A stretch of DNA of 64,000 nucleotides, taken from an uncultured Candidatus Saccharibacteria bacterium. GTDB lineage: Bacteria > Patescibacteriota > Saccharimonadia > CAILAD01 > BJGX01. The DNA lies in the NCBI GenBank assembly GCA_964610335.1, contig CAZSVP010000001.1, positions 351,442-415,441 of the forward strand. The letters run 5' to 3'. The notes beneath the pieces were generated by a model that was given only the letters and a program-made list of their open reading frames with translations, did not search any database and had not been told where the DNA came from. Below are positions 12,988-54,378 of the stretch, one piece after another (within the stretch, counting starts at the first letter, position 1; every line of letters starts with the position of its first letter). The position numbers and the translations under genes were made by a program.

Positions 12988-14000
12988 GCTTCACCCTCAA
13001 TTATTTTAGTATAAATTTTTGTAATGCTGTTTAAGTAGTGTTCACTACCAAACCGTTCAGCAATGTCTTTGGCCTTCTGTGAGTATTCCTTTTGTAGTTT
13101 AGTGCTTTTTGATAATTCAACCAGTTTACTAGAGAATGTTTTGTCTGTTGCGTATATCACATCACCACCAAATGCGTCCTTGTACTCTGGTATATCCCGA
13201 AGTATTATTGGTAGTCCACAAGCCGCCGCTTCCAGTACTGCAAGCGGGTGATTCTCTTGGTTTGAAGGCAGAACAAATACATCTGCAGCAGAGTAGTACT
13301 GGTAAACTTGTTCAAGGGGGATTACACCTGTAATTAGCAGATTATCTGGTAGGTGAGTCATGTTTTGCTTGTTTTCTTTGCTATTTGCACCGAGCTTTTT
13401 AAATGGCATTCCGCCCACCCAGATAAACTGCATTTTTGGATTGTCTTTAGCCATCTTATGGAATACGTCAAAACGTTTGCGAGGTTGTATTTGGCCAACG
13501 CTAACTACCACGAATGCTGACTGATCTATACCAAGCTTGGAGCGCTTATCATGTTTGCTTCCTGCAGCCTTACGTATCTTATCGATATTGATTGCGTTTG
13601 GAACAACTGAAACTTTTTTGGTAATACCAATATCATGTTTCAAGCTATCAGCCACCATCTGAGAGACCGCAACCACATGGTCTGCTCGTTCATAAAAAAA
13701 GCGTAGATACTTCTCTGAAATTTTGTACCAGTGTTTTGCGCCTTTAAACGATCCTATGAAGGAATCAGGTATAACATGTGCTGTTACGCAGGTATTGTTA
13801 TTTCTGAGTAGCTTGGCAAGGCTATAAGGCCCAACGGTGTGAATGTGGCATATATCGGTTTTTTTGCTACTGTTAACATATACCTGGAAACTATTACTAC
13901 TTCGGAGTGCACTAACATGCTCCAGGTAGGCAGTGTGTACGCCGTGACCTTGAACGGTAAATTCACTCTCTGATATTACATTGACTGATATAGGCTTCAT
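12984..14000 (-). CDS. family 4 glycosyltransferase (GT-B)
   Basis: FVLPSNQENHPLAVLEAAACGLPII (the E-x7-E region). Overlaps the upstream GT4 gene by 4 nt. Confidence 0.85.
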   Translation of the reverse strand: MKPISVNVISESEFTVQGHGVHTAYLEHVSALRSSNSFQVYVNSSKKTDICHIHTVGPYSLAKLLRNNNTCVTAHVIPDSFIGSFKGAKHWYKISEKYLRFFYERADHVVAVSQMVADSLKHDIGITKKVSVVPNAINIDKIRKAAGSKHDKRSKLGIDQSAFVVVSVGQIQPRKRFDVFHKMAKDNPKMQFIWVGGMPFKKLGANSKENKQNMTHLPDNLLITGVIPLEQVYQYYSAADVFVLPSNQENHPLAVLEAAACGLPIILRDIPEYKDAFGGDVIYATDKTFSSKLVELSKSTKLQKEYSQKAKDIAERFGSEHYLNSITKIYTKIIEGEA

Positions 14001-14048
14001 TGCATATATTTTAACCTGTTAATCAAACTAATGCTATGGTGATATAAC

Positions 14049-14076
14049 TTGTAATGCCGCAATATTATGGTATAAT
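14049..14076 (+). promoter_or_regulatory. sigma70-like promoter for ssrA
   Basis: TTGTAA, a 16-nt spacer, and TGgTATAAT (extended -10), ending 9 nt before the tmRNA 5' end. Confidence 0.45.
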
Positions 14077-14085
14077 ATTCCTTAT

Positions 14086-14477
14086 GGGGCTGACTAGCTT
14101 CGACATGTGGATCTTGAAATGTACTGGCAAACCGGGTTGAGCTACACGTTAGCTGGCTCACCAAAACTTAAGTGCCAAATCACTTATGCGCGACCTCGTC
14201 AATGCCGTTAAGGTTAACGAGCTAGCACCAGCTTACGCTTAATTGCGCTAAGCCGTTCAATACCTGACATCAGATAGGGTTGCGAGCGACACTTTTCTGA
14301 TTGCTCTTGGTTAGTCCCTCCATGGCCAAGCTAAGCTGAAGACAGGGGAAGCGGAGTACTGTTTTTGTTTGATCTCTCGATGTACTTTGCTTTTAAAACC
14401 AATCAGATCTGACTATGTTTGTAGAAGGTACATTCAATGCCATGTGGACGAGGGTGCGATTCCCTCCAGCTCCACCA
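14086..14477 (+). ncRNA. ssrA: transfer-messenger RNA (tmRNA, one-piece)
   Basis: 5' end GGGGCUGACUAGCUUCGACAUGUGG matches the conserved tmRNA acceptor/D-arm. 3' end GGACGAGGGUGCGAUUCCCUCCAGCUCCACCA matches the tRNA-like T-arm and CCA tail. An internal tag reading frame ends ...NELAPAYA followed by TAA at 14240-14242. Confidence 0.85.
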
Positions 14478-14508
14478 AAAAAAGATCAGGTAAACTGGTC
14501 TTTTTTTG
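14478..14508 (+). terminator. rho-independent terminator of ssrA
   Basis: Stem aagaucag/cuggucuu (one G-U pair), loop guaaa, then T7. Confidence 0.6.
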
Positions 14509-14565
14509 ATTGTAGGTAAAAGATTTTGACTATATTTTTAGTATCATTGGCGATACAATCCAGAT

Positions 14566-15381
14566 ATGACTATGCCAATAAATATTGTGTTCGTGCGCCA
14601 CGGCCAGTCGGAGCAAAACCTAGCCTCACACAAGTCCAAGGCTGGAGATACGAGTTTTTATACCAAAGAATTTGCTGACCGACATAGCTCACGCCACCGT
14701 CTGACACACAAGGGTCGTGGTCAAGCTGAGGCAGCAGGTAAATGGCTCAAGGCAAACGACATGGAGATGTTCGATCGGCTCATAGTATCAGATTATATAC
14801 GCGCCAAAGAGACAGCTGCGTTGTTGGATTTACATGGCCCTGATTGGTTCGTAGAACCCATGCTACGTGAGCGCGAATGGGGCGAGCTCGACAACATGAG
14901 TTGGGAGGAGCGCCAAGAGAAGTCTAGTACGCTTATGAAACATCGCGATACTGACTCCTTCTACTGGATACCGCCCAATGGTGAGTCGATCGCGCACATG
15001 ACCTTGCGCTTGCGTAACGTACTCGACACCTTACACCGAGAGTGTAGCGACAAGAATGTAATCATAGTATGCCACGGTGAGGTGATGTGGGGATTTCGAT
15101 TCCTAATGGAGCGCATGTCGATTGGCCGCTGGATGGATTTGGAAGCTTCAGACGAACCAGGAGTAAAGATCTTCAACTGTCAGGTATTACACTACACCAG
15201 ACGCGATCCGGAAACAGGCGAGCTAGCCAGCCATCTCAACTGGTTGCGCTCGGTTAGCCCAGCCGATCCAAGCAATAACGGACCAGGCTGGCAACAGATA
15301 GAGCGCCGCAAATATAGCAACGAAGATTTGTTGAATGATGTTGATCAAGTCAAACCACTGTTCCCAGATCATAAAGATTAG
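14566..15381 (+). CDS. histidine phosphatase family protein (phosphoglycerate-mutase-like)
   Basis: N-terminal catalytic RHG motif (VRHGQSEQN) and a downstream His (CHGEV). GC content visibly higher than the flanks. Confidence 0.75.
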   Translation: MTMPINIVFVRHGQSEQNLASHKSKAGDTSFYTKEFADRHSSRHRLTHKGRGQAEAAGKWLKANDMEMFDRLIVSDYIRAKETAALLDLHGPDWFVEPMLREREWGELDNMSWEERQEKSSTLMKHRDTDSFYWIPPNGESIAHMTLRLRNVLDTLHRECSDKNVIIVCHGEVMWGFRFLMERMSIGRWMDLEASDEPGVKIFNCQVLHYTRRDPETGELASHLNWLRSVSPADPSNNGPGWQQIERRKYSNEDLLNDVDQVKPLFPDHKD

Positions 15382-15528
15382 TCCACGGGGGTGAGTTATT
15401 TTTACAACTATACCATATCAACCTGAAAACTCAATTCGCTTGATAGTGAATTTGAATACTCAGGCTGGTGGCCGAGCCTCCAGGATGTTATCCCATAGGC
15501 TCGGCCGACCCGCACGCTTGTTGACAGA

Positions 15529-16437
15529 TCAGACCACACCGACCGGCTCTTGCCCGGTGATCTTGCTGAAGGCTTCGATGTAACGACGACGCGTCAGATC
15601 GAAGAACTTCTGGTCGATTTCTGGCGCAGGCGCTGTCTTGTCCCACTTTCCCTCATCGCAGAGCTGCTGATAGACATCGCGCAGGATCTGCTTGTCGTAG
15701 CTGGGCGTGCTCTGCCCAGGCACCCACATATTGGCTGGCCAGAAACGGCTGCTGTCAGGTGTGAGAACCTCATCGCACAGCACCAACTCACCGTCGATCA
15801 GGCCGAGCTCGAACTTGGTGTCGGCGACGATGATGCCACACGAATCGAGAGCGTGGGCGGCACCACGTCTGTACAGATCGAAGCAGATCTCTGCTCCGGC
15901 ATCGACCAATTCATGTCCGCAGCCAGGGAACTGCTGCTCGATGATCGCGATGGCGTCTTCTATCGAGATGTTGATGTCGTGCTCACCATCTGGCGCCTTG
16001 GTGCTGGGTGTGAAGATCGGCTCGGGCAGCTGGCTGGCCTCGACCAACCCCTCGGGCAGTTGGATGCCACAGAGGTAGCCACCATCGCGCTTGTACTCCT
16101 TGAGCCCTGAGCCGGTCAGGTAGCCGCGCACGATGAACTCGATCTTGAGCATCTCTGCCATCCGCACCAGCACACCTCGACCGTACAGATCGGGGATGTC
16201 GTTGAGCTCAGGTGGGAAGCGGTTCTGGTTGGTGCTGATGTGCGCTCGCGGCACGTTCGGGAACAAATCGAGCCAGAACTCCGTGAACTGCGTCAGGATC
16301 TTGCCCCTGTCGCGTACCCGTTGGGGCAGTACCACATCGAACACACTGGTGCGATCGGTACGGACATGCAGCTGCTGGCCAGGTCCGGCGTCGTAGACGT
16401 CGCAGACCTTGCCTGTGTAGATTGGGGTGAGTGTCAT
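15529..16437 (-). CDS. purC: phosphoribosylaminoimidazole-succinocarboxamide synthase (SAICAR synthetase)
   Basis: N-terminus MTLTPIYTGKVCDVYDAG... Full-length 302-aa PurC-type architecture. Lies inside the high-GC island. Confidence 0.85.
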   Translation of the reverse strand: MTLTPIYTGKVCDVYDAGPGQQLHVRTDRTSVFDVVLPQRVRDRGKILTQFTEFWLDLFPNVPRAHISTNQNRFPPELNDIPDLYGRGVLVRMAEMLKIEFIVRGYLTGSGLKEYKRDGGYLCGIQLPEGLVEASQLPEPIFTPSTKAPDGEHDINISIEDAIAIIEQQFPGCGHELVDAGAEICFDLYRRGAAHALDSCGIIVADTKFELGLIDGELVLCDEVLTPDSSRFWPANMWVPGQSTPSYDKQILRDVYQQLCDEGKWDKTAPAPEIDQKFFDLTRRRYIEAFSKITGQEPVGVV

Positions 16438-16465
16438 CTGATCCTCCTGTTGGTTTGGGTTGAAC

Positions 16466-16969
16466 TCAGTCGGCGTTGATGTCGATGTCGAACTCGGCCG
16501 GCTTGGTGTTGGCCTTGATGTACCTGTCCAACCAATCTCCGACCGGAGCGCTCTTGAGGCGGTACATCTGCAGGCTGGCGATGGCGGCTCCGGTGATGCC
16601 GTGCTTGCCCACGCCGGTCGTGAGCACTGGCACTCCGGGAGCCATGCGCAGACAGCTGTCCAGGCCGAACTGGTCGAGGGGCACTGCGATCACTGGGTGG
16701 CTCATCATGTTGGCACCGGCCAATGCTCCTGGGAGCGCGGCTGCCAGGCCGGCGATACCGATGAAGATCGAGGGCTCGGACGTGGCCAGCTCGTGATCGA
16801 CGAAGGCTTGGAGATCTTTCGGGTTGCGGTGCGCCGAACAGGCGTGGTACTTCACGAACCCAGGGCCGATATCCAGATCGGCGCAGAGCTGGTCGTAGAT
16901 GCTCGGCATCTTCGACTCCTTGATGACAGGCAGGTCGGAATCCTTGCTGCCCATGACGACGTGGATCAT
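16466..16969 (-). CDS. purE: 5-(carboxyamino)imidazole ribonucleotide mutase
   Basis: MIHVVMGSKDSDLPV... and GIAGLAAALPGALAG motifs of PurE/AIR carboxylase. High GC. Confidence 0.9.
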   Translation of the reverse strand: MIHVVMGSKDSDLPVIKESKMPSIYDQLCADLDIGPGFVKYHACSAHRNPKDLQAFVDHELATSEPSIFIGIAGLAAALPGALAGANMMSHPVIAVPLDQFGLDSCLRMAPGVPVLTTGVGKHGITGAAIASLQMYRLKSAPVGDWLDRYIKANTKPAEFDIDINAD

Positions 16970-17064
16970 GGTATCTCTCTTTCAGTTGTCAATTTCGTGC
17001 GGGTCAGCGATCTAACGCTGCGGGTTATTTTATCTGAAAACTACCTAATTGGGTAGCATAAGCA

Positions 17065-17805
17065 TTATTTGCTGTGTTCGATGGTTGAACGGCGACGTTT
17101 GAAATACCGGTAAGTGCTGCGCGGCGATCTGTAAAGCTGGCGCATTTTGACAGCCACTATAAGCTTAGGGTCAAACAGGATTCTGCCACCAGCCTTGTAA
17201 ATTTGAATCGCTAAGTCGACATCTTCGTGGATTGTGCTATCGTCATCAGTAACTTTGGCACGTACTTGCTGCCACATGGCTCTAGTAATTGCCATGTTAG
17301 AGCCCCACAGGGTAGGTGAGCCCATCATTTGCTCTGTTCTGTGGAAGTAGAGCCGTGTATGCAGCCTAGTGATAGTAGGTCGCACAATTTGGTGGAAGTC
17401 GTAAAACTCAGCTGGTCCAGTGATTGCGTCGAGTTTCTTATCTGTAAAGGTACTCGTTACTTGCTTACACCAGCTCGGCGGAAGGATAGTATCAGCATCG
17501 ATGCGCCCAATGATGCTACATTTGGCAGCATTGAAGCCCGCTGTGCGGGCGTGGCCAATGCCTTGTTTTGGTTCGTGAATAATTCGTAATTGTTTAAGGC
17601 CAACATTTTGGGCTACTGCGATGGTATCGTCTTTTGAATTGTTGTCTACCAAAATTACTTCGTCGGGCGGCTGTGTTTGCGCGGCAATTGCGCGCAAACA
17701 CACGCCAATATATTTGGCTTCGTTGTGGGCGGGGATGACGATACTAAGGCTCATGACATTATTGTCGGCGAAGTTGATTACAAAAACAAATTCATTGTTG
17801 CGCAC
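17065..17805 (-). CDS. family 2 glycosyltransferase
   Basis: LSIVIPAHNEAKYI, VDNNSKDDT, and an IDAD DxD motif. Confidence 0.8.
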   Translation of the reverse strand: MRNNEFVFVINFADNNVMSLSIVIPAHNEAKYIGVCLRAIAAQTQPPDEVILVDNNSKDDTIAVAQNVGLKQLRIIHEPKQGIGHARTAGFNAAKCSIIGRIDADTILPPSWCKQVTSTFTDKKLDAITGPAEFYDFHQIVRPTITRLHTRLYFHRTEQMMGSPTLWGSNMAITRAMWQQVRAKVTDDDSTIHEDVDLAIQIYKAGGRILFDPKLIVAVKMRQLYRSPRSTYRYFKRRRSTIEHSK

Positions 17806-17841
17806 ACAAATTTTATGACAAAAATATTTTGGTATAAAAGA

Positions 17842-17873
17842 AGATCAGCCTCGACTTGCGTCTTGGCTGATCT
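17842..17873. terminator. 9-bp perfect hairpin, a candidate terminator between fba and the GT2 gene
   Basis: agatcagcc / ggctgatct with T-rich sequence downstream on the plus strand. Confidence 0.35.
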
Positions 17874-18006
17874 GTTGGAAGAGCTTTGTTTTTGTTTTTG
17901 AGTAATTTATGTGTGCAGCACTGAATTAATGATAACGCTTCAGCTTATGGTCTGTCAACAACTTTTTTGAAAAAAAATCAGACTTTTTTATAAAAACTTT
18001 TGTTTA

Positions 18007-19008
18007 TTATTGTGGAGCCAACTTGCCGCGCCGGGCCAGTGAGTTGGTGTGGAGCCAACGAGCAAACTCTTTTTGTGCGGCGGCGGCGTTCTTGGCTTCG
18101 CCAGCCCATACTTTCATAGCGGGGTCTTGCACGGCACGCGAGAACGAAAAAGTTATGGGCCACGGCTGAGTTCCTTGGCTGTCTATTGCATTGAGATTTT
18201 GACAGGCTTGTTCAGGGCTTTGACCACCACTTAAGAATACTATCCCGCCTAGTTCATTGGGTACTCTTAAGCGTAGTACATCGAGAGTATTTTGGGCCAC
18301 CTGATCTGGTGAAGACTGTTTTTTGGAGTCTTTGCCTGCCAATACCATACTGGTTTTAAGAATTACATTATCCAAATCTACTTTGTAGGCGCTAAGGATA
18401 TCAAATAAGATTCTCAGGACATTGCTGGTAACTTCGGCAGCTTGTTCGATGGTGTGGTCGCCGTCATATAGTATCTCTGGTTCTACAAGTGGAACTAGAT
18501 TATTACTTTGAGCCAGGGCTGCATAACGCGCCATAATATTGAGATTGGCGTGAATGGCAGCCATGCTAGGAAGGGAATTGGCTTGATTTATCTGAAATGC
18601 TGCTCGCCACTTGGTAAAACTTGCCCCAGCAGTAGCATATTTATGTAACCGCTGGTCCAACCCATCTAACCCCTCGGTAATTGTCTCGGGCTCAAAGTTG
18701 GTAAAAGGCACTAGTCCACAATCTACTTTTATGCCGGCAAGGATACCTTGAGAGGCAAGATACTCAACAAAACTCATGTTTTGGTCGTTCTTTTGCCAAA
18801 AAGTCTCGTCATGTAAGATCACACCACTAACATATTGTGCGAAATCAGGTGTTTCAAACAGTATTTGACGATAAGTACGACGTATTTCGGGAGTGGACGC
18901 AATATGTAGAGATTGTAGCCGCCCTGTAGCATTCTTCGGGCTTTCATCGGCTGCCAAGATTCCTTTGGGTTCAACAAATAGTTGTTGGATGGTCTTACTC
19001 ATGTTCAT
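18007..19008 (-). CDS. fba: class I fructose-bisphosphate aldolase
   Basis: GILAADESPKNATGRL motif of class I (Schiff-base) aldolases. Confidence 0.9.
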   Translation of the reverse strand: MNMSKTIQQLFVEPKGILAADESPKNATGRLQSLHIASTPEIRRTYRQILFETPDFAQYVSGVILHDETFWQKNDQNMSFVEYLASQGILAGIKVDCGLVPFTNFEPETITEGLDGLDQRLHKYATAGASFTKWRAAFQINQANSLPSMAAIHANLNIMARYAALAQSNNLVPLVEPEILYDGDHTIEQAAEVTSNVLRILFDILSAYKVDLDNVILKTSMVLAGKDSKKQSSPDQVAQNTLDVLRLRVPNELGGIVFLSGGQSPEQACQNLNAIDSQGTQPWPITFSFSRAVQDPAMKVWAGEAKNAAAAQKEFARWLHTNSLARRGKLAPQ

Positions 19009-30488: not shown

Positions 30489-33224
30489 ATGAAAGTAAGT
30501 ATTCAATCGCTCAATCAATATCTTAAGCCAAAGCTTAGTACAACAGAGATAACTGTAGCCATAGAGCGAACAGAAATCGAACTAGAGGAGGTCATAACAG
30601 GTCCAACATGGGATAAGTCAATTGTTGTAGCTCGTGTACTTGAAGTACTCCCACACCCCAATGCTGATCGACTCAAATTGGTACTGGTAAGTGATGGTAA
30701 GAAAACATACACTGTTGTGTGCGGAGCTCCAAATGTAAAAGCTGAAATGACGGTGGCTTTGGCACAGCTAGGATCTGTTATGCCAGATGGAACAAATATA
30801 GAAGCAGCTACTATTCGTGGCGAGAAAAGTAACGGTATGCTTTGTTCGGCAGCTGAGTTAGGTATTAGCGATGGCCATAGTGGAATTATGGAGCTTTCCC
30901 CTGACCTACTCTTAGGACAATCATTGTGCGACATAGAGAATTTTGGCGATATCTTAGACATTAAGACCCACCCAAATCGTTGGGACACTATGTCTTTGGT
31001 CGGTTTGGCGCGGGAAATTGCTGCCAATGCATCTAAACCTGTAAAACTGTTAGAGCCAAAATTACAGCAGGTGAGTTATAGTGACAAGGGGAAGGTTAAA
31101 TTAACAAGCACCGCAGAGTGCAGTCATTTTGTGAGTGCGAAGCTGAGTGTCGATAATTCTGGGAAAAGCCCGCAATGGCTTGTGGATAACTTGGAATCCA
31201 ATGGGCTACGTAGTATTAATCCAGTTGTAGATATATCAAACTACGTAATGCTTGAATATGGTCAGCCAAGCCACAGTTATGATGCCGCAAAACTCAATGG
31301 CCAACTATGTGTACGTAGGGCCAAAAAAGCTGAATCACTTCCCTGCTTGGATGGAAAAACTAGGCAGCTTACTGAAGACGACATAGTGATAGCTGATAAT
31401 GCGTCGGTAGTGGGTATTGCAGGTGTAATGGGAGGTGCAACAACCGAAACAAAACCGAACACTAGCGAAATTGTTATGGAGGTAGCGGTATTTGATAAAA
31501 CACTGGTGCGCAAGACAGCACAACGTCATGGTATTCGTACTGAAGCAAGTGCACGATTTGAGCGAGGTTTACCACTCCCCTTGCAGACGCTAGCTTTCGA
31601 GCGCTTAGTTTATTTGTTGCAAGAAATATGCGCAGCCAAATTTGTCGATGGGCCATTTGACCAATTGTATGCTTGGCCATGGATACAATATGTCGGCTTG
31701 AGACTGAGATATGCTGAGAGTGTGTTGGGTATGGATCTTGATGAGAAGATCGTGATCGATGGTTTGCGAAGGCGTGGATTTGAGGTCGAACACTTTTCAC
31801 TCAGTAGTGAAGCTAAGGAGCATATAGGTAAGCCGTACAAGTATGGCGCTAGTTTTCGGATTGATGGTGAGGCTGCATTTGACTGTTCGTATTTGACGGA
31901 ACGCATATATTGCAAGATAGGGATACAGATCGGGCATACGGCTGCGCAACAGTACAAGAACGGGTCAGAAATCGATGATTCAAATCTAAAACCTGGTGAT
32001 TTATTGTTTGTGAAGGGTGGTATTAAAGACACCAAGCTTGCCAAAGCTCGCAACAATATTGGGCATGTTGGCATGTATATGGGCGGCAACAAAGTTCTTG
32101 AAGCAAAACAATCAGTTGGAAAGGTGGCCTTCACTACCCTTTCTGAGTTTCAGAAGCGAAAAGGCTACATAGGTGCACGACGGTTTGTTCCCAGCTTTAA
32201 TCATATCCTTGCTGTGGTGGTGCCATGGTGGCGCGCAGATATAGTGCTTGAAGAAGATCTAATAGAAGAGGCTGCCAAAATTGTAGGTTACGATAGTATG
32301 CCCGACACACTATCACTGTTGCCACCCACACCCACTGGCGATCATCAACAACTTCTGCGACTACTAGAGCTAAAGAAACAGTTGGTAGCAATCGGAGCCC
32401 AGGAAGTTGCTACTTACTCATTTGTGAGCGTTGATGCACTGAAACTGGTTGGTGGAGATGTGGTGAATGCTATAGAAATTGTCAATCCACTGCAAAAAGA
32501 GCAGGCGCTAATAAGGACAGAAACCCTACCAAGCCATTTGCAGGTGGTGCGCAATAACCAAAGTGATATGGACCAAAGCATCTTTTTTGAGATTACCAAA
32601 CTTCAAACTTGGTCCAAAAAACCTTCAATTGTAGACGAACAGTGGTACTTGGCTATAACCGCTATGGGTGAACAAAGCTATGCTCAGGTGAAGGCAGTGG
32701 TAGATTCGTTGGAATCATTTTGGGGGATGGAGTTTCTGGTAAGCCGTTGTAGCATACCTACACTGATTGAGGGTCGGCAGGCTAGTTTGGGCGTAGATGG
32801 CAAACCAGTAGGGACTATTGGGCAGATCCACCCCACTGTGCTCACGGAATTTGGTATCAAAAGAGAAGTATCACATGCGCAGGTATGCCTGAGTAAGATG
32901 CTTGAGACTGAGATATTGAAAACAGTGCAACCACTTCCCTCTTATCCTTTGATTGTGCGATCATTGACTGTTGAATGCAATGAAGCTTGTTTGTGGCAGC
33001 CAATCCAAAAATCCTTACAAAAGCATGATTTTGTTGTTTCGGCTGAGTATGTTGGCGAATACCAAGACGAACAACTAGCCAAACAATCAACCAAGCGTAT
33101 CAGCATGAAGCTATTGATGGACTTGGGTGACAAGGCAGAACAAGTTGCTATAGACCAAGCACTGTCCAAAGCAATTGATGGATTGCGTAAGCTCACTGGT
33201 ATGTCTGATTTGAAAATTTGCTAG
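30489..33224 (+). CDS. pheT: phenylalanine--tRNA ligase beta subunit carrying an internal NlpC/P60-like domain insertion
   Basis: tRNA-binding OB domain, B3/4, B5, the PWWRADI...EEDLIEEAAKIVGYD block and an FDX-like C-terminus. Between the B5 domain and the PWWRADI block (about nt 31800-32190) there is an extra segment with NlpC/P60 Cys-His signatures (FDCSYLTERIY ... NIGHVGMYMGGNKVLEA). Confidence 0.85.
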   Translation: MKVSIQSLNQYLKPKLSTTEITVAIERTEIELEEVITGPTWDKSIVVARVLEVLPHPNADRLKLVLVSDGKKTYTVVCGAPNVKAEMTVALAQLGSVMPDGTNIEAATIRGEKSNGMLCSAAELGISDGHSGIMELSPDLLLGQSLCDIENFGDILDIKTHPNRWDTMSLVGLAREIAANASKPVKLLEPKLQQVSYSDKGKVKLTSTAECSHFVSAKLSVDNSGKSPQWLVDNLESNGLRSINPVVDISNYVMLEYGQPSHSYDAAKLNGQLCVRRAKKAESLPCLDGKTRQLTEDDIVIADNASVVGIAGVMGGATTETKPNTSEIVMEVAVFDKTLVRKTAQRHGIRTEASARFERGLPLPLQTLAFERLVYLLQEICAAKFVDGPFDQLYAWPWIQYVGLRLRYAESVLGMDLDEKIVIDGLRRRGFEVEHFSLSSEAKEHIGKPYKYGASFRIDGEAAFDCSYLTERIYCKIGIQIGHTAAQQYKNGSEIDDSNLKPGDLLFVKGGIKDTKLAKARNNIGHVGMYMGGNKVLEAKQSVGKVAFTTLSEFQKRKGYIGARRFVPSFNHILAVVVPWWRADIVLEEDLIEEAAKIVGYDSMPDTLSLLPPTPTGDHQQLLRLLELKKQLVAIGAQEVATYSFVSVDALKLVGGDVVNAIEIVNPLQKEQALIRTETLPSHLQVVRNNQSDMDQSIFFEITKLQTWSKKPSIVDEQWYLAITAMGEQSYAQVKAVVDSLESFWGMEFLVSRCSIPTLIEGRQASLGVDGKPVGTIGQIHPTVLTEFGIKREVSHAQVCLSKMLETEILKTVQPLPSYPLIVRSLTVECNEACLWQPIQKSLQKHDFVVSAEYVGEYQDEQLAKQSTKRISMKLLMDLGDKAEQVAIDQALSKAIDGLRKLTGMSDLKIC

Positions 33225-34800: not shown

Positions 34801-35238
34801 ATGCCCCCAGTAACGCCTGCTGAAAAAAAACCAAATCAACCACCTGTAGAAAGGCAGCCAGCAGCGCTTCCTACTGAACAGTTGCCCAAAACAGAGCAGC
34901 AGCCTTCTGGTGCAGAACAGGCACCAGCTGCCGCCGAGCAACCGCAGAGCGCACCGGCTGCACCAGTCCAACAGCCTGCCCAGATAGCACAGCCAGTCCA
35001 ACAGCCTGTGTCGCTGCAAACACCGCCGGACGATCCAGTGGCTGCTGTGATTCAACAAAAGACCGCCAATCTTACTGCCGATGATGTCGACTTGATTGAG
35101 AAAGAATGGGTTGATGTAGTTGATGATACCATTGAGAAAACCAAGGACGATCCAGAAATTGAAGAACGTGCTCAACAGGAGCTCAACAAGGCATACCTCA
35201 AAAAGCGCTTTAATCTAGATGTGGACTCAAGTGAATGA
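34801..35238 (+). CDS. Pro/Gln/Ala-rich acidic protein (hypothetical)
   Basis: 145 aa. PAxxQP-type low-complexity N-terminus and an acidic C-terminus. Overlaps the start of the downstream ATPase by 4 nt. Confidence 0.5.
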   Translation: MPPVTPAEKKPNQPPVERQPAALPTEQLPKTEQQPSGAEQAPAAAEQPQSAPAAPVQQPAQIAQPVQQPVSLQTPPDDPVAAVIQQKTANLTADDVDLIEKEWVDVVDDTIEKTKDDPEIEERAQQELNKAYLKKRFNLDVDSSE

Positions 35239-37739
35239 ATGATTTTGTGATATTTATGAGCATATTGTTCGCGTTGTTCGTGATAGCAGTTATATTTGTG
35301 GCGTTTTTTATATATCGCAAGATAGTGCGACGCAGTAAGCAGGTTGAGCGCTCACTCAAATTCGTACCGCTTCTTATCAAACTACCCCCGCAAGAAGTCA
35401 ATGAAGCCCAGAATCGTGATGAACGCGAGATGATGAAAGAAAATATTTCCAAGGCTGAGCAAGTTTTCAATTTGCTATCTGGAATAGTAAGTGAGAAAGC
35501 TGAGGTTTACGGTCGTCGCTACATTAGTTTTGAAATTATCGCTGAGGCTAAGAGGATATATTTCTATGTCTCTGTGCCGGCTAGTCTGATTTCAACTGTA
35601 TCGAAGGCTTTGGCTGCCGGTTATCCAGGTGTCCAAGTGATCCGTAAGGAAGAAATCAACTTATTTTCACAGGTTAGCAAGATTGCTGGTGTAGCAGGTG
35701 GTGAGCTCAAGCTGGCCAAAGATAGCATCATGCCGATCAATACTTACAAAAACGCCGAACGTGACGCGATGTCTGGTATGTTGGCGGGTTTGTCGAACCT
35801 TTCTGAGGGTGATGCTGCAGCTATTCAGATGTTGGTCCGTCCTGCCCCCTATCGCTGGGTAAAACGAGCCCACAGGCGTGCCAAATACTACTATACAAAC
35901 AAGAAGACTGGCTTTGCCCCCAAGGCCATGGACTTTGCTGGCGAAGCAATTCGCTCACCGCTTGGTACCAAAGATACTGAACAGAAAGATTACGTACCAA
36001 ACGAGCTAGACAAGAAGAAGGCTGAACTAGTAGAAGAGAAGGTAAAAGTACCTGCTTTTGAAACCACCATACGACTAGTTGCGAGTTCAGACGACCCATC
36101 ACGATCCAAACTAATTTTGCAAGATATGCTGCTGGGGTTTGCTCAGCTAGCCCAAAACGATGCCAACCGGTTTAAATTTGTCAAAGCTGATTCACCACAG
36201 GAGCTTGCGACCAACTTTATTTTTCGGTTTTTCAAGGAGAATACCTTCTTTGCTCATCAGATGATACTTAACTCCACTGAGTTGGCAACAATATTTCATC
36301 TACCAAGCGAACTACTCGACTTGGCTACGCCGATTGAGCGCAAGGGTAGCAAGGAGGTTCCTGCACCGACTGGGATGCCAGCTGCTGGGCTGTTGTTGGG
36401 AACCAATGTCTATCGGGCTACCCAAACGCCTATATATTTGAGTGAAAACGACCGTCGACGACACCTGTACTTCATTGGTCAAACTGGTACAGGTAAATCA
36501 ACCTTCTTGGAGAACTTGATGCTGCAAGATGCCATAGCCGGTCGAGGCTTTGCATTTATCGACCCGCATGGCGACACTGCTGAAAAGATGCTTGGCATGA
36601 TACCACCCGAACGTGCCGAGGATGTAATTTACTTTAGTCCAGGTGACACCGAGGTACCGCTTGGGTTCAATATGATGGAATACGACCCAGATAAGCCAGA
36701 GCAAAAAGACTTCTTGATCCAAGAAGCTATTCAGATGCTTTACAAACTCTATGATCCTCAGCATCAGGGTATCATCGGTCCACGCTATGAACACTGGTTT
36801 CGTAACGCTGCATTGACTGTTATGGCTGATCCCGAGGGTGGTACTTTTATAGAAATACCCAAGGTGTTTACTGACGATGAATATCTCAAGAAGAAGTTCC
36901 GATTTGTGACAGACCCAACCGTCCAAGACTTTTGGACTGGCGAGATGGCACAGACCGATGCCCATAGCAAGAGTGAGATGCTTGGCTGGTTTGTGAGTAA
37001 GTTTGGTGCTTTTGCCAACAACGAGATTATGCGTAACATCATTGGTCAGAAGCACTCGGCATTTAAGTTTCGCGATGTGATGGATAGTAACAAGATCTTG
37101 CTTGTGAACCTCAGTAAGGGTTTGCTTGGTGATCTCAATGCCAAGTTGCTTGGTATGATCATGGTGATTAAGTTCCAGATGGCAGCTATGAGCCGAGCTG
37201 ATACGCCAGAAGAAGAGCGACCAGATTTCAGTGTATATGTCGATGAGTTTCAAAACTTCAGTACTGATAGCTTTGCTACTATTCTTTCTGAGGCCCGCAA
37301 ATACCATCTCAACTTGATTGTTGCCAATCAGTTTATCTCTCAGCTCGACGAACAAGTAAGAGATGCCGTGTTTGGCAATGTTGGCTCTCTAATATCATTT
37401 AGAGTTGGTGCCGACGATGCTGAGTATATGGAGAAGCAATTCCAGCCCCAGTTTGATAAACACGATCTCATAAATATACCCAACTTCAAGGTTGTGTCTA
37501 AGATCATGGCCAACAATGTACCGACCACACCGTTCTCGATGGACTGTCTACCTGCGATAGGTACACCCAATGCTGAGATTTTGCAGGCTATGAAAGACTT
37601 GTCACGTAGTAAGTATGGGCGTCCTAAGAGCGAGGTAGCGGCTGAGATTATTCATAGTCTCGACTCTGGTAGCTATGGTGATCCTCAGGTGGGTCAAACA
37701 GTTTCTACTGGTATGGGACGAGACAATTCACATAACTAG
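35235..37739 (+). CDS. type IV secretion-type P-loop ATPase (VirB4/VirD4/TraG superfamily) with an N-terminal TM anchor
   Basis: N-terminal TM helix. Walker A FIGQTGTGKST followed by IDPHGD. Walker B VYVDEFQNF. C-terminal ANQFISQL...FRVGADDAEY block typical of conjugative coupling/VirB4 ATPases. Confidence 0.7.
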   Translation: MNDFVIFMSILFALFVIAVIFVAFFIYRKIVRRSKQVERSLKFVPLLIKLPPQEVNEAQNRDEREMMKENISKAEQVFNLLSGIVSEKAEVYGRRYISFEIIAEAKRIYFYVSVPASLISTVSKALAAGYPGVQVIRKEEINLFSQVSKIAGVAGGELKLAKDSIMPINTYKNAERDAMSGMLAGLSNLSEGDAAAIQMLVRPAPYRWVKRAHRRAKYYYTNKKTGFAPKAMDFAGEAIRSPLGTKDTEQKDYVPNELDKKKAELVEEKVKVPAFETTIRLVASSDDPSRSKLILQDMLLGFAQLAQNDANRFKFVKADSPQELATNFIFRFFKENTFFAHQMILNSTELATIFHLPSELLDLATPIERKGSKEVPAPTGMPAAGLLLGTNVYRATQTPIYLSENDRRRHLYFIGQTGTGKSTFLENLMLQDAIAGRGFAFIDPHGDTAEKMLGMIPPERAEDVIYFSPGDTEVPLGFNMMEYDPDKPEQKDFLIQEAIQMLYKLYDPQHQGIIGPRYEHWFRNAALTVMADPEGGTFIEIPKVFTDDEYLKKKFRFVTDPTVQDFWTGEMAQTDAHSKSEMLGWFVSKFGAFANNEIMRNIIGQKHSAFKFRDVMDSNKILLVNLSKGLLGDLNAKLLGMIMVIKFQMAAMSRADTPEEERPDFSVYVDEFQNFSTDSFATILSEARKYHLNLIVANQFISQLDEQVRDAVFGNVGSLISFRVGADDAEYMEKQFQPQFDKHDLINIPNFKVVSKIMANNVPTTPFSMDCLPAIGTPNAEILQAMKDLSRSKYGRPKSEVAAEIIHSLDSGSYGDPQVGQTVSTGMGRDNSHN

Positions 37740-37810
37740 AGTAGATGCTACTTGCAACAGAGTAGTGATTCGTACTACAATCGATAGCAAATGATAATGA
37801 GGGTACCAAC

Positions 37811-40132
37811 TTGATAAACTTCCAGGATATTGTAACTTCTGTTTCGACCGGCAAACTTTCGCCAGGTAGAATTGGCTACTATGTAAAACGTCTCGCGGCC
37901 GAGACTGCTACCCGCAGGATAGCCAGCATTTTTATTATCGGTCTTCTGGTATTCCAGATTTTTACATTCTTGGCCCCACCAAAGCCAAGCTTTGCGGCTA
38001 GTCCTGGGTTTGACTTAATATCTGGTGCGCCATTTAGTAAAGATTCTCTTATAAGTGCTGTTTGGGATCAGAACCGTGATGGTATTCAACAGGTCTTCAA
38101 CAGGCTAGGTATTTCAAGGCAGAAGATGGAAGCTGCTGGTGTTGGTCCTTGTGCAGCAGAGGGTGACAATTGGATATCGATGGGGCGCAGCCAAGATGGT
38201 GCTGGTAGCTCAGTCCAGTGGCAAGAGGGTATCTGGGTTGGATCATCTATAAACAGATGGGGTAATGCTTATACAAACGATGGTAACTGTATCCAGGCGC
38301 TGCGTGGGCTAGGAGACAAAGTTTATGTATCCGATGGCGGACCTGGTATACCAGCTGGTTGGTATGAATGGGGCGTATTGCTCGATTGCGGTAATATTGT
38401 GCTTAAACCTACTGAGCCACCTCCTAATCCCAAGAGCTTTAGTTGCCAGTCTGTAAACATATCTGCAACAAGTGTAGTAGTAGGACAACCAGTTGTGGTG
38501 GCAGGTTATGCTCATGGTGAGAACGTCTCACAAGGTGAGAGAGTAGACATGGTATACGGATCATATAGTGGAGGTAATCTGCTCGCTACTCAGTCTTCGG
38601 CTGGCGTAGGCCCCCCAGACGGTAACAACAACTTTATAGATGATAGCGGTAAGTCATTTACTTTTAACGATCCAGGAACTTACGAAATAGCGTTAGTGGT
38701 ATTCTACGATGTCGACGGTACAAAATACTTCGCATCAGGTAGTGGAAATGGCGAATGTAAAAGAACTATTACTGTTACACCTCAGCCTAAGCCGCATACA
38801 CTAGTTTGTGGAGGCTTAGATATGGTAAATAGTGGCGGTAACTTCACTTATCAAGCACCGCATACACCGCTCATCAAAGGTACTGCATTGCAAGAAGGTG
38901 ATTCTGGTCCAGAAGTGTATGCCAAACGATTTCTATACCTGTTGCTCAAGGAAGTGCCAAGTGGAGGGTCTGTGCAACATGGTGGGAAGCAGTACATAGA
39001 GATCAATGCCAACAATCGCATACTGCACTCATATCCAACACAGAATACTCGTGTAGATCCGCTTGCTAGTGCACCCAACCCAGCGGCCTTTGCCGCAACC
39101 CAGTTTGCCCAGAATAGCGCTGGAAGTTTCTTGATCCTGCTGCGAGTATCTTCTGAAAACTCTGGCGACAACAACTTCGCTCCAGACACAAACAGTTGTG
39201 CCGTGCCGTTTGTAGTAACCCCTCAACCCAAGGACATCATGTGTGTTGACTTGACTGCTAGCCCACTCACTGGCGACACAGTACCAGTAGAGGTAACATT
39301 CAATGCCAAAGGTGGTGCACAAAACACTACGATCAAGGAATACCAATTTGACTTCGGTGATGGTAACAAACAAACAGTAACAAGTGGCAAGTTTGCTGAA
39401 ACGCTCAAACACACTTATCAAAGTGGTGGCAAATATACTGCTAAGGTTACAGTTGTGGGCACCGACCCGGGTGTGACATCGAGCAAGCCAAGCTGTACTG
39501 TGCAACTTAAGTTTGAACAACACGTGTTCCGCAAGACAGTCAAGAATCTAACAATTCTTACACAAGATGGTAAACCAACCGATGCCAATGGCGCGACTGC
39601 ACGGCCAGGAGATAAGCTAACCTACACTATAGGCATTGCCAACATAGGAAGTGCTCCTATAAAAGACTATGTGTTTAAGGACGACATATCTGATATATCA
39701 CTTTATGCTGATGTAATAGACAAAGGTGGTGCTGAGCTCTCGGTAGAAGCAACTCACGTGTTACTAACCTGGCCAGCGGTGGATATCCCAGTTACGACCG
39801 ATCCGAACAATCCTACTTATGTTACCAAAAGCTTTACTGTACAGGTAAAAGATCCAGTTCCAACCAATGCACAGAAGCCTACTGACAATAAGAACTATGA
39901 TTGTCAGATGGAAGACCAGTTTGAAGGTAATATAGTGATCACACCAATTAGTGTAAACCCAGCTAAGCGGCTAGAGTGTGTTGTGGCTCCTCTGCCACAG
40001 ACTGGTGCTGCCACTAGCCTAATAGTGATGGGATTGCTTGCTGCCCTATCAGTATTCTTACTACTACGCAATCGACTTATGAAACGCGAACTTGATCTAT
40101 TGGAAACACTAAATGAAGGAGCTAAAAGCTAA
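37811..40132 (+). CDS. LPxTG-anchored cell-surface protein with PKD-like and DUF11-like repeat domains
   Basis: N-terminal signal/TM helix. PKD-like motif YQFDFGDGNKQ...HTYQSGGKYTAKVTV. DUF11-like motif GDKLTYTIGIANIGSAPIKDY. C-terminal LPQTG, a hydrophobic helix and an RNRLMKR tail (sortase sorting signal). TTG start inferred. Confidence 0.8.
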   Translation: MINFQDIVTSVSTGKLSPGRIGYYVKRLAAETATRRIASIFIIGLLVFQIFTFLAPPKPSFAASPGFDLISGAPFSKDSLISAVWDQNRDGIQQVFNRLGISRQKMEAAGVGPCAAEGDNWISMGRSQDGAGSSVQWQEGIWVGSSINRWGNAYTNDGNCIQALRGLGDKVYVSDGGPGIPAGWYEWGVLLDCGNIVLKPTEPPPNPKSFSCQSVNISATSVVVGQPVVVAGYAHGENVSQGERVDMVYGSYSGGNLLATQSSAGVGPPDGNNNFIDDSGKSFTFNDPGTYEIALVVFYDVDGTKYFASGSGNGECKRTITVTPQPKPHTLVCGGLDMVNSGGNFTYQAPHTPLIKGTALQEGDSGPEVYAKRFLYLLLKEVPSGGSVQHGGKQYIEINANNRILHSYPTQNTRVDPLASAPNPAAFAATQFAQNSAGSFLILLRVSSENSGDNNFAPDTNSCAVPFVVTPQPKDIMCVDLTASPLTGDTVPVEVTFNAKGGAQNTTIKEYQFDFGDGNKQTVTSGKFAETLKHTYQSGGKYTAKVTVVGTDPGVTSSKPSCTVQLKFEQHVFRKTVKNLTILTQDGKPTDANGATARPGDKLTYTIGIANIGSAPIKDYVFKDDISDISLYADVIDKGGAELSVEATHVLLTWPAVDIPVTTDPNNPTYVTKSFTVQVKDPVPTNAQKPTDNKNYDCQMEDQFEGNIVITPISVNPAKRLECVVAPLPQTGAATSLIVMGLLAALSVFLLLRNRLMKRELDLLETLNEGAKS

Positions 40133-47882: not shown

Positions 47883-47904
47883 TTGTTTTAGTCTTCCAAA
47901 GCCC

Positions 47905-48504
47905 TTATACTACTAACATAACAGCTTTGGAAGAGCGTGGAACAACAGAGTAATACAACACAACAACCCCAATACGAGGAAGTAGATAAGAAGTCACATT
48001 GGCTCATCTGGCTATTAGTCGGTTTAGCAGCCCTCTTTCTTGTAATCATAATTATCTTACGTGGTCTCTGTACTGATGTATGGTATATCCGGATGCTTGG
48101 TCTCAATGATCGCTGGTGCCCATCACCTGCTAGTAGTTTGGTCGGTAAGACAGATCTTGCTGATGGTAGTGTGACTGGTAAGAAGGTAGCCTCTGAGACT
48201 ATTACTGTCAGCAACCTTTCTCAACCCATCCAGCAGTTCATTACCAACACCGAGCAAACACTTCAGCAAATAACTCAACAAATCTCTCAGGTATCCAATG
48301 TCCCTGGCCCTGCTGGCCCAGTCGGTGCCACTGGTTTGCAAGGTGCTACCGGTCCAACTGGAGCTACCGGTGCAACTGGTGCCACTGGCCCTCCCGGACC
48401 AGCTGAGCCGATTACTTCCAATGTTCTCAACTCAGCTGGCAACTCTCTAGACTCTACTGTCAATGGAGTGGGCTCTAATGTAGTGAGTATTATTAATTCG
48501 AATA
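47905..48504 (+). repeat. direct repeat copy A (about 600 bp, near-identical to 51289-51888): leader plus the 5' 190 codons of a fibre paralog
   Basis: Direct reading shows matching sequence from atactactaacataacagctttggaagagcgtggaacaac... through ...gtgagtattattaattcgaata at an offset of 3384 bp. Confidence 0.85.
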
Positions 48505-51269: not shown

Positions 51270-51288
51270 ATATCATACGCAGTAGTTG

Positions 51289-54326: not shown

Positions 54327-54378
54327 ACATCTGCATCTGGTAGCTGCTATACTACTACCATAACAACTTTGGAAGAGT

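Follow-up and report, generated by a model that had tools for sequence, protein, structure and literature searches.

A GC-rich purE-purC pair of probable horizontal origin, with purE replaced in situ among strains, in a Saccharibacteria-type chromosome

We analysed a 64-kb stretch of a Saccharibacteria-type chromosome (hereafter the window) that contains two adjacent genes for purine synthesis, a purE homologue encoding 167 amino acids (16466..16969) and a purC encoding 302 amino acids (15529..16437). Both ORFs lie on the minus strand, where a preliminary description of the sequence had placed them, and a 28-nt spacer (16438..16465, minus strand) separates them, with a GGAGGA ribosome-binding site 7 nt ahead of the purC ATG. 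Upstream of purE is a leader/promoter region (16970..17064, minus strand) that was delimited by composition, conservation, and junction alignment. Past the purC stop, a GC-rich stem-loop (15470..15506, identified as an inverted repeat and by its fold and conservation) stands between the convergent purC and histidine-phosphatase genes, the latter matching His_Phos_1 in Pfam (14566..15381, plus strand). Farther out lies the tmRNA gene, ssrA (14086..14477, plus strand; ARAGORN and Rfam), one end of an ssrA-to-aldolase interval in which gene content varies across the family. No riboswitch or known RNA was found upstream of purE, as an Rfam search of 14000-18100, at the gathering threshold and at E <= 1, returned the tmRNA only; PADLOC detected no defence system in the four genes.

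The two genes fill a 1.5-kb block of foreign composition (15463..16964) with 60.6% GC compared with 44% in the surroundings. A three-segment change-point fit placed its edges at 15463 and 16964 (GC of 0.437, 0.606, and 0.449 in the successive segments), which correspond to the hairpin past the purC stop on one side and the purE start codon on the other. The purC (59.5%) and the purE homologue (62.5%) jointly reach 60.4% GC, where the whole window has 44.7% and other windows of 1441 bp have 44.2 +/- 2.4% with a maximum of 49.9% (z = 6.85); in tetranucleotide usage, 15501-17000 is equally far from the window mean (z = 6.9). Over 42 ORFs, the divergence in synonymous codon usage has a median of 0.064 (MAD 0.023), whereas purE stands at 0.435 and purC at 0.378, and the GC3 values of 0.84 and 0.76 contrast with 0.36-0.55, about 0.40, in the remaining genes. 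The ATP synthase, gyrase, and aldolase genes of the same window show no rise in GC3. The GC jump with sharp ends that had been read by eye is thus confirmed by computed GC, the change-point fit, and z values of about 6.9, and the sliding GC, codon-usage, and tetranucleotide checks then proposed all set the purE-purC block apart as an outlier. The pair is compositionally foreign, and its horizontal origin is well supported.

PurC matches Pfam PF01259 with 188.6 bits (cut-off 20; residues 6-263) and NCBIfam NF010568 with 313 bits (cut-off 251; residues 3-296). It is of the long (PRK13961) type, passes both thresholds, and is predicted from these matches to be a SAICAR synthetase (EC 6.3.2.6), as in the first annotation. 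The hairpin downstream of it, also noted earlier, is real: its outer stem is a perfect 10 bp, the 91-nt hairpin region has a predicted fold of -37.5 kcal/mol (z = -4.4), and the structure is kept in four relatives (L092, L006, L001, and L002). A U-tract is absent, and the hairpin probably serves to terminate or stabilise the transcript. The leader on the other side has native composition (43% GC) and is conserved to 3-6 nt before the ATG, even across strains with non-homologous purE genes. A promoter scan of the purE strand gave a sole strong match that overlaps the start codon and was hence not relied on.

The purE product matches Pfam AIRC with 75 bits but scores 71.1 bits against TIGR01162, below the equivalog cut-off of 149.6 bits. 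It belongs to a divergent "CPR-type" subfamily. The proteins of L006 (86.6 bits) and L013 (119.8 bits) also fall short, while the canonical PurE proteins of L001 (172.3 bits) and L088 (177.9 bits) exceed the cut-off. The window PurE retains SAHRNP with the catalytic S-A-H-R (E. coli His45), which is invariant across 75 homologues; 27 residues in all are invariant among them. The N-terminal phosphate/ribose loop G-S-x-S-D appears as GS..SD with a one-residue insertion, and there are two loop deletions. Its 70s loop reads AGLAAALPG, with AAALPG where class I has AAHLPG, and the alanine in place of the loop histidine (E. coli His75) occurs throughout the subfamily. The AlphaFold model shows a confident PurE fold (pLDDT 93), and Foldseek aligned it with the class-I structures 3trh, 2ywx, 3kuu, and 1u11 at TM 0.72-0.78. 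The original call of an N5-CAIR mutase therefore stands as regards the AIRC domain and the fold but fails the curated TIGR01162 threshold. All 34 PDB sequence matches at E <= 0.001 are named N5-CAIR mutase or prokaryotic PurE catalytic subunit, and none is a PAICS chain. The class-II PurE motif is SAHK. Assignment to class II (AIR carboxylase) was rejected, given that the PDB matches are all prokaryotic PurE and the motif is SAHR. The nearest relatives beyond its own clade are only 45-53% identical, and the subfamily members with a named source (four of the 120 matches listed) come from Patescibacteria, Saccharibacteria, Dormibacteraeota, and a "Binatia" MAG. Judged by sequence, the window purE is not actinobacterial but a member of a divergent PurE subfamily that many Patescibacteria share. 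We found no paper on the purE-purC locus or on this subfamily.

The GC-rich pair occupies the same slot in L001, L002-L005, L006, L007, and L092. It does so even in relatives whose core proteins are only 62-76% identical, so that the block is not a recent or strain-specific insertion. At about 60% core identity, L009 and L088 show a variant arrangement. L088 is a MAG labelled "Candidatus Saccharibacteria" at NCBI; its synteny with the window, and 55-60% identity in two proteins, are the basis for the putative assignment of the window to Saccharibacteria. In both L009 and L088, the pair is inverted and accompanied by three extra small GC-rich ORFs; in L002, Gmk and a 136-aa ORF are added in the ssrA-to-aldolase interval. 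None of the small GC-rich ORFs next to the pair in L009, L088, and L002 has a Pfam match. The purE and purC ORFs are intact in every relative, and the GC3 of the pair stays at 0.74-0.87 in all of them. A 321-aa ORF opposite purC in L007 is a gene-calling artefact; purC is intact there. A scan of genome contigs with the aldolase protein returned only relatives of 44-46% identity (Saccharimonadales and WWE3).

Within this conserved slot, the purE ORF and the 28-nt spacer form a segment (16438..16965, minus strand) that is swapped as a unit, as defined by blastn breakpoints, sliding identity, and junction alignments. L092 and L001 carry a canonical Acidimicrobiia-type class-I purE there, and L006/L007 carry a second CPR-type allele. 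The flanks of the window and L092 are 98.5-98.9% identical, but their PurE proteins share about 28% identity (BLASTP), and only that of L092 exceeds the TIGR01162 cut-off; the canonical PurE of L001, near-identical to that of L092, shares 30% with the window in the multiple alignment, and the L006 protein shares 60%. Homology breaks off 3-6 nt before the purE ATG and starts again at the purC ATG, and the first ~25 nt of the L092 purC carry L001-type SNPs. The window and L092 thus hold distant homologues in the same slot between conserved flanks, i.e., an in-situ xenologous displacement, for which the leader upstream of purE is the left homology arm. The neighbouring genes are also mosaic. Core-gene dS among these strains is 0.15-0.28, whereas the dS of purC is 0.06 against L006 and 0.39 against L001, and that of the phosphatase alleles is 0.62-0.88. 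Near-conspecific strains carry shuffled combinations of three phosphatase alleles, two purC alleles, and, besides the canonical purE, two other purE alleles, which we ascribe to homologous recombination via the flanks. Since near-identical strains hold very different purE versions, gene import at the slot appears to be still ongoing, and because the forms are interchanged in situ with canonical PurE, they are likely to be equivalent in function.

Outside its own clade, PurC has its nearest relatives in Acidimicrobiales/Acidimicrobiia, which makes Acidimicrobiia (Actinomycetota) the best match as its putative source; because the identity to any Acidimicrobiia protein is only 50-57%, the transfer would be old or from an unsampled lineage. 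In a neighbour-joining tree, the saccharibacterial PurCs fall into three separate groups, with monophyly in 0-3 of 100 bootstraps, and this tree cannot give the direction of transfer. Proteins of Acidimicrobiales and Rhabdothermincola match the canonical PurE of L001 and L092 at 82-88% identity, and the purE product of L090, a contig of 70.6% GC with a full pur operon, matches it at 88%; by sequence affinity, the Acidimicrobiia source of the canonical purE in the sister strains is unmistakable. The proposed origin in high-GC Actinobacteria accordingly survives for PurC and for the sister-strain purE but not for the window's own purE, and the suggested BLASTP check divides in the same way, PurC leading to Acidimicrobiales and PurE to the Patescibacteria-type subfamily.

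The substitutions run from GC to AT. Between L090 and L001, the purE differences comprise 52 GC>AT and 4 AT>GC; in purC, polarised GC>AT changes outnumber AT>GC changes by 33 to 8 in the window lineage and by 21 to 6 in L001, counts in which parsimony polarisation with a GC-richer outgroup inflates GC>AT. At four-fold sites, core genes of the window and L002 are saturated (identity of 0.28-0.38, with 0.26 expected), whereas purC (0.52), purE (0.56), GT2 (0.48), and the phosphatase gene (0.43) retain more identity. Outlier composition therefore coincides at this locus with affinity to a distant phylum and conflict with the core genes, and the initial suggestion of a likely horizontal acquisition is upheld by the foreign composition, the PurC affinity, the 4:1 flux from GC to AT, and the low synonymous divergence. 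A GC3 of 0.76-0.87 exceeds what simple amelioration would leave if the pair had been resident since the split at ~60% core identity. Later re-imports or exchanges would explain this surplus, and they are shown only in part.

As for function, the window PurE should convert AIR, via N5-CAIR or directly, to CAIR, and PurC should convert CAIR, aspartate, and ATP to SAICAR, as predicted from their sequences. No other pur gene, including purK, was found among the window ORFs of at least 150 aa, as had been stated, and the pair could be a dead end of two middle purine steps. The accompanying statement that Patescibacteria typically lack purine synthesis overstates the case: other Patescibacteria lineages repeatedly have purE-purC(-purB) operons, and published surveys credit some members with partial or complete purine pathways (PMC7786006 and PMC11608272), although the supplementary tables of PMC7786006 hold no list of purine enzymes per genome.

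We regard the locus as probably a horizontally derived purE-purC operon in a Saccharibacteria-type chromosome, with continued exchange between strains. Transcription would start from the native-composition leader upstream of purE and end at the GC-rich hairpin, and PurE followed by PurC would run two middle steps of purine synthesis on AIR from a presumed supply. The pair may have come from GC-rich donors, with the PurC lineage and the canonical purE pointing to Acidimicrobiia, and may have entered the ssrA-to-aldolase interval in an ancestor within the family. It would then decay slowly toward the AT-rich host composition while moving between lineages and strains by homologous recombination with the flanking genes as arms; in some strains, a xenologous Acidimicrobiia class-I purE would have displaced the purE ORF in situ.

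Other explanations account for parts of these observations. The abrupt composition change at both ends could mark DNA of some GC-rich organism wrongly assembled into a contig of low GC, but the same junctions recur in at least six assemblies obtained independently, from different samples and with different pipelines (L001, L002-L005, L006, L007, and L092), and the flank DNA is 95-99% identical across them; the recurrence excludes a chimeric contig, a concern raised at the outset, for practical purposes. The position of the block, which begins 986 bp downstream of the tmRNA gene (about 0.9 kb in the preliminary description), and the differing gene content of the ssrA-to-aldolase interval in L002, L009, and L088 would suit a degraded phage- or ICE-like element that had brought purE-purC into the ssrA 3' end before losing integrase and att sites. 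However, Pfam scans of all ORFs of at least 150 aa found no integrase, recombinase, or phage gene in the window; the 32-nt ssrA 3' end, with up to three mismatches, occurs once in the window, and no plausible border in the window, L001, L002, L006, or L009 has a repeat of at least 11 nt. The earlier remark that no integrase or att repeats are visible is thus borne out, as opposed to the insertion at an ssrA hotspot that it accompanied. All retrieved relatives carry the pair, none showing an empty site. PurE has no phage match and only 35-40% matches in IMG/VR, where PurC has none, and PurC reaches at most 46% identity against gut phage contigs; a phage or viral vehicle was rejected for this lack of close matches. 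The phosphatase gene, moreover, stands between ssrA and the block. It has 49.9% GC, a GC3 of 0.55, and a codon-usage divergence of 0.091, which is no outlier, and a metagenome scan with its protein gave 71 homologous loci (<= 61% identity), none with synteny or with purE, purC, or ssrA nearby. Because of these loci and its normal codon usage, it is not part of the module: it was described as a GC-elevated member of the island, of which only the intermediate GC stands, and it is a native neighbour rather than cargo, yet part of the recombination mosaic. Integration at ssrA is in our judgement quite improbable.

A single ancient acquisition followed by strictly vertical descent, with the GC content kept by selection or GC-biased gene conversion, would agree with a slot conserved across lineages whose core dS is saturated, with the high GC3 of the pair in all of those lineages, and with frequent recombination at the locus. 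Yet the net 4:1 flux runs opposite to any GC-maintaining force, purE and purC differ much less at synonymous sites between the window and L002 than core genes do, the ATP synthase, gyrase, and aldolase genes share no GC3 rise, and purE alleles only 30% and 60% identical occur in strains otherwise 95-99% identical, so we hold this explanation to be unlikely. We give a similarly low weight to a non-functional or re-purposed remnant, in which orphan steps without substrate drift to loss or another use. The solitary pair in the 64-kb window, the raised dN/dS of the window purE (0.38-0.48 against relatives), and its score far under the curated PurE threshold speak for such a remnant; nevertheless, these dN/dS values remain below 0.5, those of purC are 0.16-0.29, both ORFs are intact in every relative, and the catalytic motifs are invariant across the PurE subfamily. 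The pair is also conserved across the family and linked to purB in other lineages, and the recruitment of a canonical purE to the same slot implies selection for activity.

Starting from the preferred reading, a horizontally derived and still exchanged operon, a broader one can be drawn, which we consider unlikely. The slot would act as a permanent landing pad for host DNA in a lineage that lives on Acidimicrobiia and captures their purine genes again and again. The purE forms would be a balanced polymorphism with differing needs for CO2 or PurK, the form without the 70s-loop histidine possibly being a third, PurK-independent PurE class and the other a host-type class-I mutase. The GC-rich purE-purC beside a native-composition purB in the unrelated Patescibacteria L013, L091, L009, and L088 would be the mark of a cassette of two genes that travels widely. 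Acidimicrobiia are not so far known as hosts of Saccharibacteria.

Omelchenko et al. are reported to have described, in 2003, mosaic operons in which a gene is displaced in situ by a xenologue. As there, a distant foreign homologue takes an operon slot while neighbours and regulatory context remain unchanged; unlike there, both states coexist here in strains ~99% identical around the site, with nucleotide-resolution breakpoints and at least three purE alleles, i.e., as a polymorphism and not as an event inferred from distant genomes. The locus resembles tmRNA-associated islands in its foreign-composition DNA near ssrA and in an interval that varies among relatives, but it differs from them in lacking integrase, att duplication, and mobility genes, in the native gene in between, and in its movement by homologous recombination of flanks. 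The arginine deiminase system of Saccharibacteria is another acquired metabolic module (PMC8764695), in which a reduced epibiont likewise gained a small metabolic operon horizontally. In the present case, the operon serves purine steps, the donor would be Acidimicrobiia and not oral Actinomycetes or Firmicutes, and purE-purC is still far from host composition and repeatedly exchanged. Gene transfers have been used to guess hosts, according to work cited in PMC11659515. The hosts of most environmental Saccharibacteria are unknown, and a gene 82-88% identical to those of Acidimicrobiia that keeps much of the donor GC bias is therefore a testable clue to a host or close neighbour. The displacement appears to be caught in progress, with both states and their junctions in natural populations, which is rarely available, and the coexisting purE states let the renewal of metabolic genes in reduced genomes be studied directly.

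Metabolic reconstructions should not automatically dismiss an orphan pair of purine steps in a reduced genome as noise, nor take Patescibacteria to be uniformly devoid of purine genes. Class-I PurE occurs without PurK in methanogens and other archaea, where PurE alone can make CAIR at high CO2 (PMC3261824). The window PurE is class-I-like (SAHR) and has no purK nearby, but it differs from those enzymes in the missing 70s-loop histidine, in two loop deletions, and in failing the curated model, and it represents a bacterial subfamily, mostly of Patescibacteria, known from sequence. Such a divergent subfamily, linked or fused to PurC, could explain CAIR synthesis without PurK. PurE-PurC fusions of the CPR-type subfamily are present in metagenomes (P0419, P0420, and P0427), with PurE at the N-terminus. 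The domain order of PAICS is the opposite. The same two steps are coupled in these fusions and in eukaryotic PAICS, which joins SAICAR synthetase and AIR carboxylase (PMC9376930), whereas the window has purE and purC as separate genes with 28 nt between them, and the PurE part is not class II.

The purE homologue (16466-16969, minus strand) and purC (15529-16437, minus strand) have GC contents of 62.5% and 59.5%, respectively, in a window whose overall GC is 44.7%. Taken together, the two genes lie 6.85 SD above the remaining 1441-bp windows, none of which exceeds 49.9%. In a three-segment likelihood fit, the block begins at 15463 and ends at 16964, corresponding to the GC-rich hairpin directly past the purC stop and the purE start codon, respectively. 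This segment also stands out from the rest of the window in its tetranucleotide composition (z = 6.9). Relative to a median codon-usage divergence of 0.064 (n = 42 ORFs), purE and purC reach 0.435 and 0.378 and are by far the strongest outliers; their GC3 values are 0.84 and 0.76 vs. 0.36-0.55 in the other window genes. The GC-rich island with purC and purE that the preliminary description proposed is thus borne out, since GC, codon usage, and tetranucleotides all single out this stretch, and GC3 agrees. The described GC hairpin (15470-15506) does exist, folds stably, and is conserved in relatives; likewise, no further purine genes occur among the window ORFs of at least 150 aa. The phosphatase gene (14566-15381), which had been included in the island, is indeed GC-elevated (49.9%), but its codon usage is ordinary.

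The gene order glycosyltransferase, purE, purC, phosphatase, and ssrA (the tmRNA gene, 14086-14477 in the window) is the same in contigs from independent samples and assemblers, which rules out an assembly chimera, and the pair is equally GC-rich in all contigs with that arrangement. Four of these contigs (L001, L006, L007, and L092) are near-conspecific with the window, with flank proteins 95-100% identical, and L002-L005 represent another species, with core proteins 62-76% identical to those of the window and saturated four-fold sites. The presence of the same pair in both groups excludes a strain-specific block, and its presence in the second speaks against a recent acquisition. In two more distant contigs, L009 and L088, of which the second belongs to an NCBI MAG labelled 'Candidatus Saccharibacteria', the pair is inverted and adjoins the same aldolase-smpB genes; core proteins of both are ~45-60% identical to those of the window, excluding the poorly matching ArgRS, and ssrA lies 2.7 kb upstream of purE in L009. 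No empty site was found among the relatives retrieved.

Directly upstream of purE, L009 (8621-9805) and L088 (7847-9073) carry three extra small GC-rich ORFs of ~80, 108, and 126-137 aa with a GC3 of 0.59-0.84, which are homologous between both lineages, have no Pfam match, and may be extra cargo of the same acquisition. The ssrA-to-purC interval of L002 (11023-13027) additionally encodes a guanylate kinase (GC 55%) and has a 136-aa ORF (GC 60%), neither of which is in the window. In L007 (7601-8566), the public gene call is a 321-aa ORF opposite purC, which is intact there with 98% identity; gene callers can be misled by high-GC segments in low-GC genomes.

Polarised substitutions in purC comprise 33 GC-to-AT vs. 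8 AT-to-GC changes in the window lineage and 21 vs. 6 in L001, a ratio that is large even though parsimony with a GC-richer outgroup inflates the GC-to-AT excess. The composition of the genes is therefore eroding towards the resident one, and a high GC is not being maintained. Between the window and L002, the four-fold identity of core genes is 0.28-0.38, with 0.26 expected from composition, whereas it reaches 0.52 in purC, 0.56 in purE, 0.48 in the adjacent glycosyltransferase gene, and 0.43 in the phosphatase gene. It follows that the locus was exchanged between the two lineages after their genomes had diverged.

Outside its own clade, the window PurC best matches proteins named Acidimicrobiales, Acidimicrobiia, or Actinomycetota (50-57% identity), and its identities to PurC from the other Patescibacteria compared here are just 35-50%. 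In a neighbour-joining tree, which suffers from sampling and method bias and gives no direction of transfer, the Saccharibacterial PurCs form three separate groups, with L009 and L088 adjoining the Acidimicrobiia pool, and 0-3 of 100 bootstraps recover them as monophyletic. The sister strains L001 and L092 provide stronger evidence for a horizontal origin, as they carry a canonical class-I purE in place of the window purE. This canonical PurE passes the equivalog cut-off (172 bits) and shares 82-88% identity with many proteins, among them those of Acidimicrobiales MAGs and Rhabdothermincola. Its closest match (88%) is on L090, a contig with a GC of 70.6% and the gene order purA-purD-purE...purB-purC-purS-purQ, which has the look of a donor-type genome; relative to the L090 gene, the L001 purE has 52 GC-to-AT changes vs. 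4 in reverse. The preliminary interpretation is supported in part: the horizontal origin and an actinobacterial link hold. The proposed acquisition from high-GC Actinobacteria fits PurC, but not this particular purE, which is not actinobacterial. Acidimicrobiia are implicated as donor and therefore possibly as a host, which appears to be new.

The preliminary description had further placed the insertion at an ssrA hotspot. In favour of this idea, the gene content of the ssrA-to-aldolase interval differs across the family. However, the window ORFs of at least 150 aa include no recombinase, the ssrA 3' end is not repeated in the window or in four relatives, and the phosphatase gene sits between ssrA and the block. 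Searches for close relatives of the pair among phages and viral contigs found none. The phosphatase gene is resident rather than cargo: at 71 other metagenomic loci of its family, purE, purC, or ssrA was never found nearby. An element integrated at ssrA is therefore not supported. Window and L002 share 88% identity in the phosphatase protein (core proteins, 62-76%), yet near-conspecific strains share only 92%; the history of this protein has thus not followed that of the genome. Members of its 90% cluster are called 'NAD+ kinase' by JGI, a name backed by no domain match, and among solved structures the protein is closest to fructose-2,6-bisphosphatase domains (E = 2e-6).

The window PurC is an ordinary long-type SAICAR synthetase that passes the curated NCBIfam model. 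The PurE homologue matches Pfam AIRC but scores only 71 bits against the PurE equivalog cut-off of 149.6. It retains the catalytic SAHR motif, has AAALPG where class-I enzymes have AAHLPG, and lacks six residues in the loops preceding the MPxGxPV motif; all these features are invariant across 75 homologues. In structure comparison, its AlphaFold model (pLDDT 93) matches class-I PurE at a TM of 0.72-0.78. We name this subfamily 'CPR-type' PurE and found no description of it in the literature. Its named members come from Patescibacteria, Saccharibacteria, Dormibacteraeota, and one 'Binatia' MAG, a source name being given for only 4 of the 120 matches listed. In the contexts examined, CPR-type purE is directly followed by purC and sometimes purB. 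Three metagenome proteins of 434-456 aa (P0419, P0420, and P0427) are natural fusions of an N-terminal CPR-type PurE with PurC, which is of the long type in P0419 (51% identical to the window PurC) and of the short type in P0420 and P0427.

Core-gene dS among the compared strains is 0.15-0.28, and the three locus genes deviate from it differently. The purC dS is 0.06 between the window and L006 and 0.39 between the window and L001, and that of the phosphatase gene is 0.62-0.88. The PurE of L006/L007 is 60% identical to that of the window and 84% identical to that of L002 from the other species, and the canonical PurE of L001/L092 is 30% identical to that of the window. With letters marking distinct alleles, the window combines purE CPR-1, purC a, and phosphatase a; L092 canonical purE, purC a, and phosphatase a; L006/L007 purE CPR-2, purC a, and phosphatase b; and L001 canonical purE, purC b, and phosphatase c. 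The sharpest case is L092, whose DNA is 98.5% identical to the window over 18093-16966 and 98.9% over 16437-13900, with no alignment in between. Homology ends 3-6 nt before the purE ATG and restarts at the purC ATG, and the first ~25 nt of the L092 purC carry L001-type SNPs. Such a pattern is the mark left by homologous recombination in which an L001-like strain was the donor and the conserved leader and purC served as arms. In-situ xenologous displacement is a known phenomenon; what appears new is a live displacement whose two states and junctions all occur in natural populations, as well as a divergent PurC-linked PurE subfamily interchangeable with the canonical class-I enzyme.

The two genes most likely form one operon, in which a leader of native composition (16970-17064) would precede purE, a 28-nt spacer containing GGAGGA would separate purE from purC, and the conserved hairpin, which lacks a U-tract, would close the unit. 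Judged by enzyme family, PurE is predicted to convert AIR to CAIR, and PurC to produce SAICAR. Because no purK is in view, PurE would use spontaneously formed N5-CAIR or CO2 directly, a mode of action proposed for class-I-like PurE of archaea lacking PurK (PMC3261824). Both L013 (10001-13652), from the unrelated Saccharibacteria MAG GCA_016187175.1, and L091 (4924-7840), from a MAG labelled Binatia (GCA_035510275.1), contain purE-purC-purB operons with purB directly after purC. The L091 contig has 43.5% GC with CHAP and ricin-lectin genes and may be mis-binned. In both operons, the GC3 of purE-purC is 0.56-0.79 and that of purB is at the genome level (0.40-0.43); GC-enriched purE-purC beside native purB thus recurs in unrelated Patescibacteria. 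This arrangement suggests that the pair may bridge missing steps in a partial lower half of purine synthesis. Partial and complete purine pathways have been reported in some Saccharibacteria and other CPR (PMC7786006, PMC11608272), and Saccharibacteria are known to acquire small metabolic modules horizontally (PMC8764695).

Elsewhere in the window, the 911-aa PheRS beta chain (30489-33224, plus strand) has an NlpC/P60 cell-wall hydrolase domain at residues 447-564, inserted inside or adjoining the B5 domain, an odd domain combination. Four tandem large paralogous ORFs (45543-57036, plus strand) of 779, 1110, 1001, and 885 aa each contain a Peptidase_S74 (endosialidase chaperone) domain; three of the four have collagen-like repeats, with likeness to phage tail-fibre or surface-fibre proteins. 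At 35235-40132 (plus strand), an 834-aa protein with weak matches to T4SS-DNA_transf and TraG-D_C (type IV secretion coupling) is followed by a PKD-domain protein. This locus may belong to the type IV machinery of Patescibacteria that is the subject of bioRxiv 10.1101/2025.01.22.634366, with possible relevance to DNA uptake.
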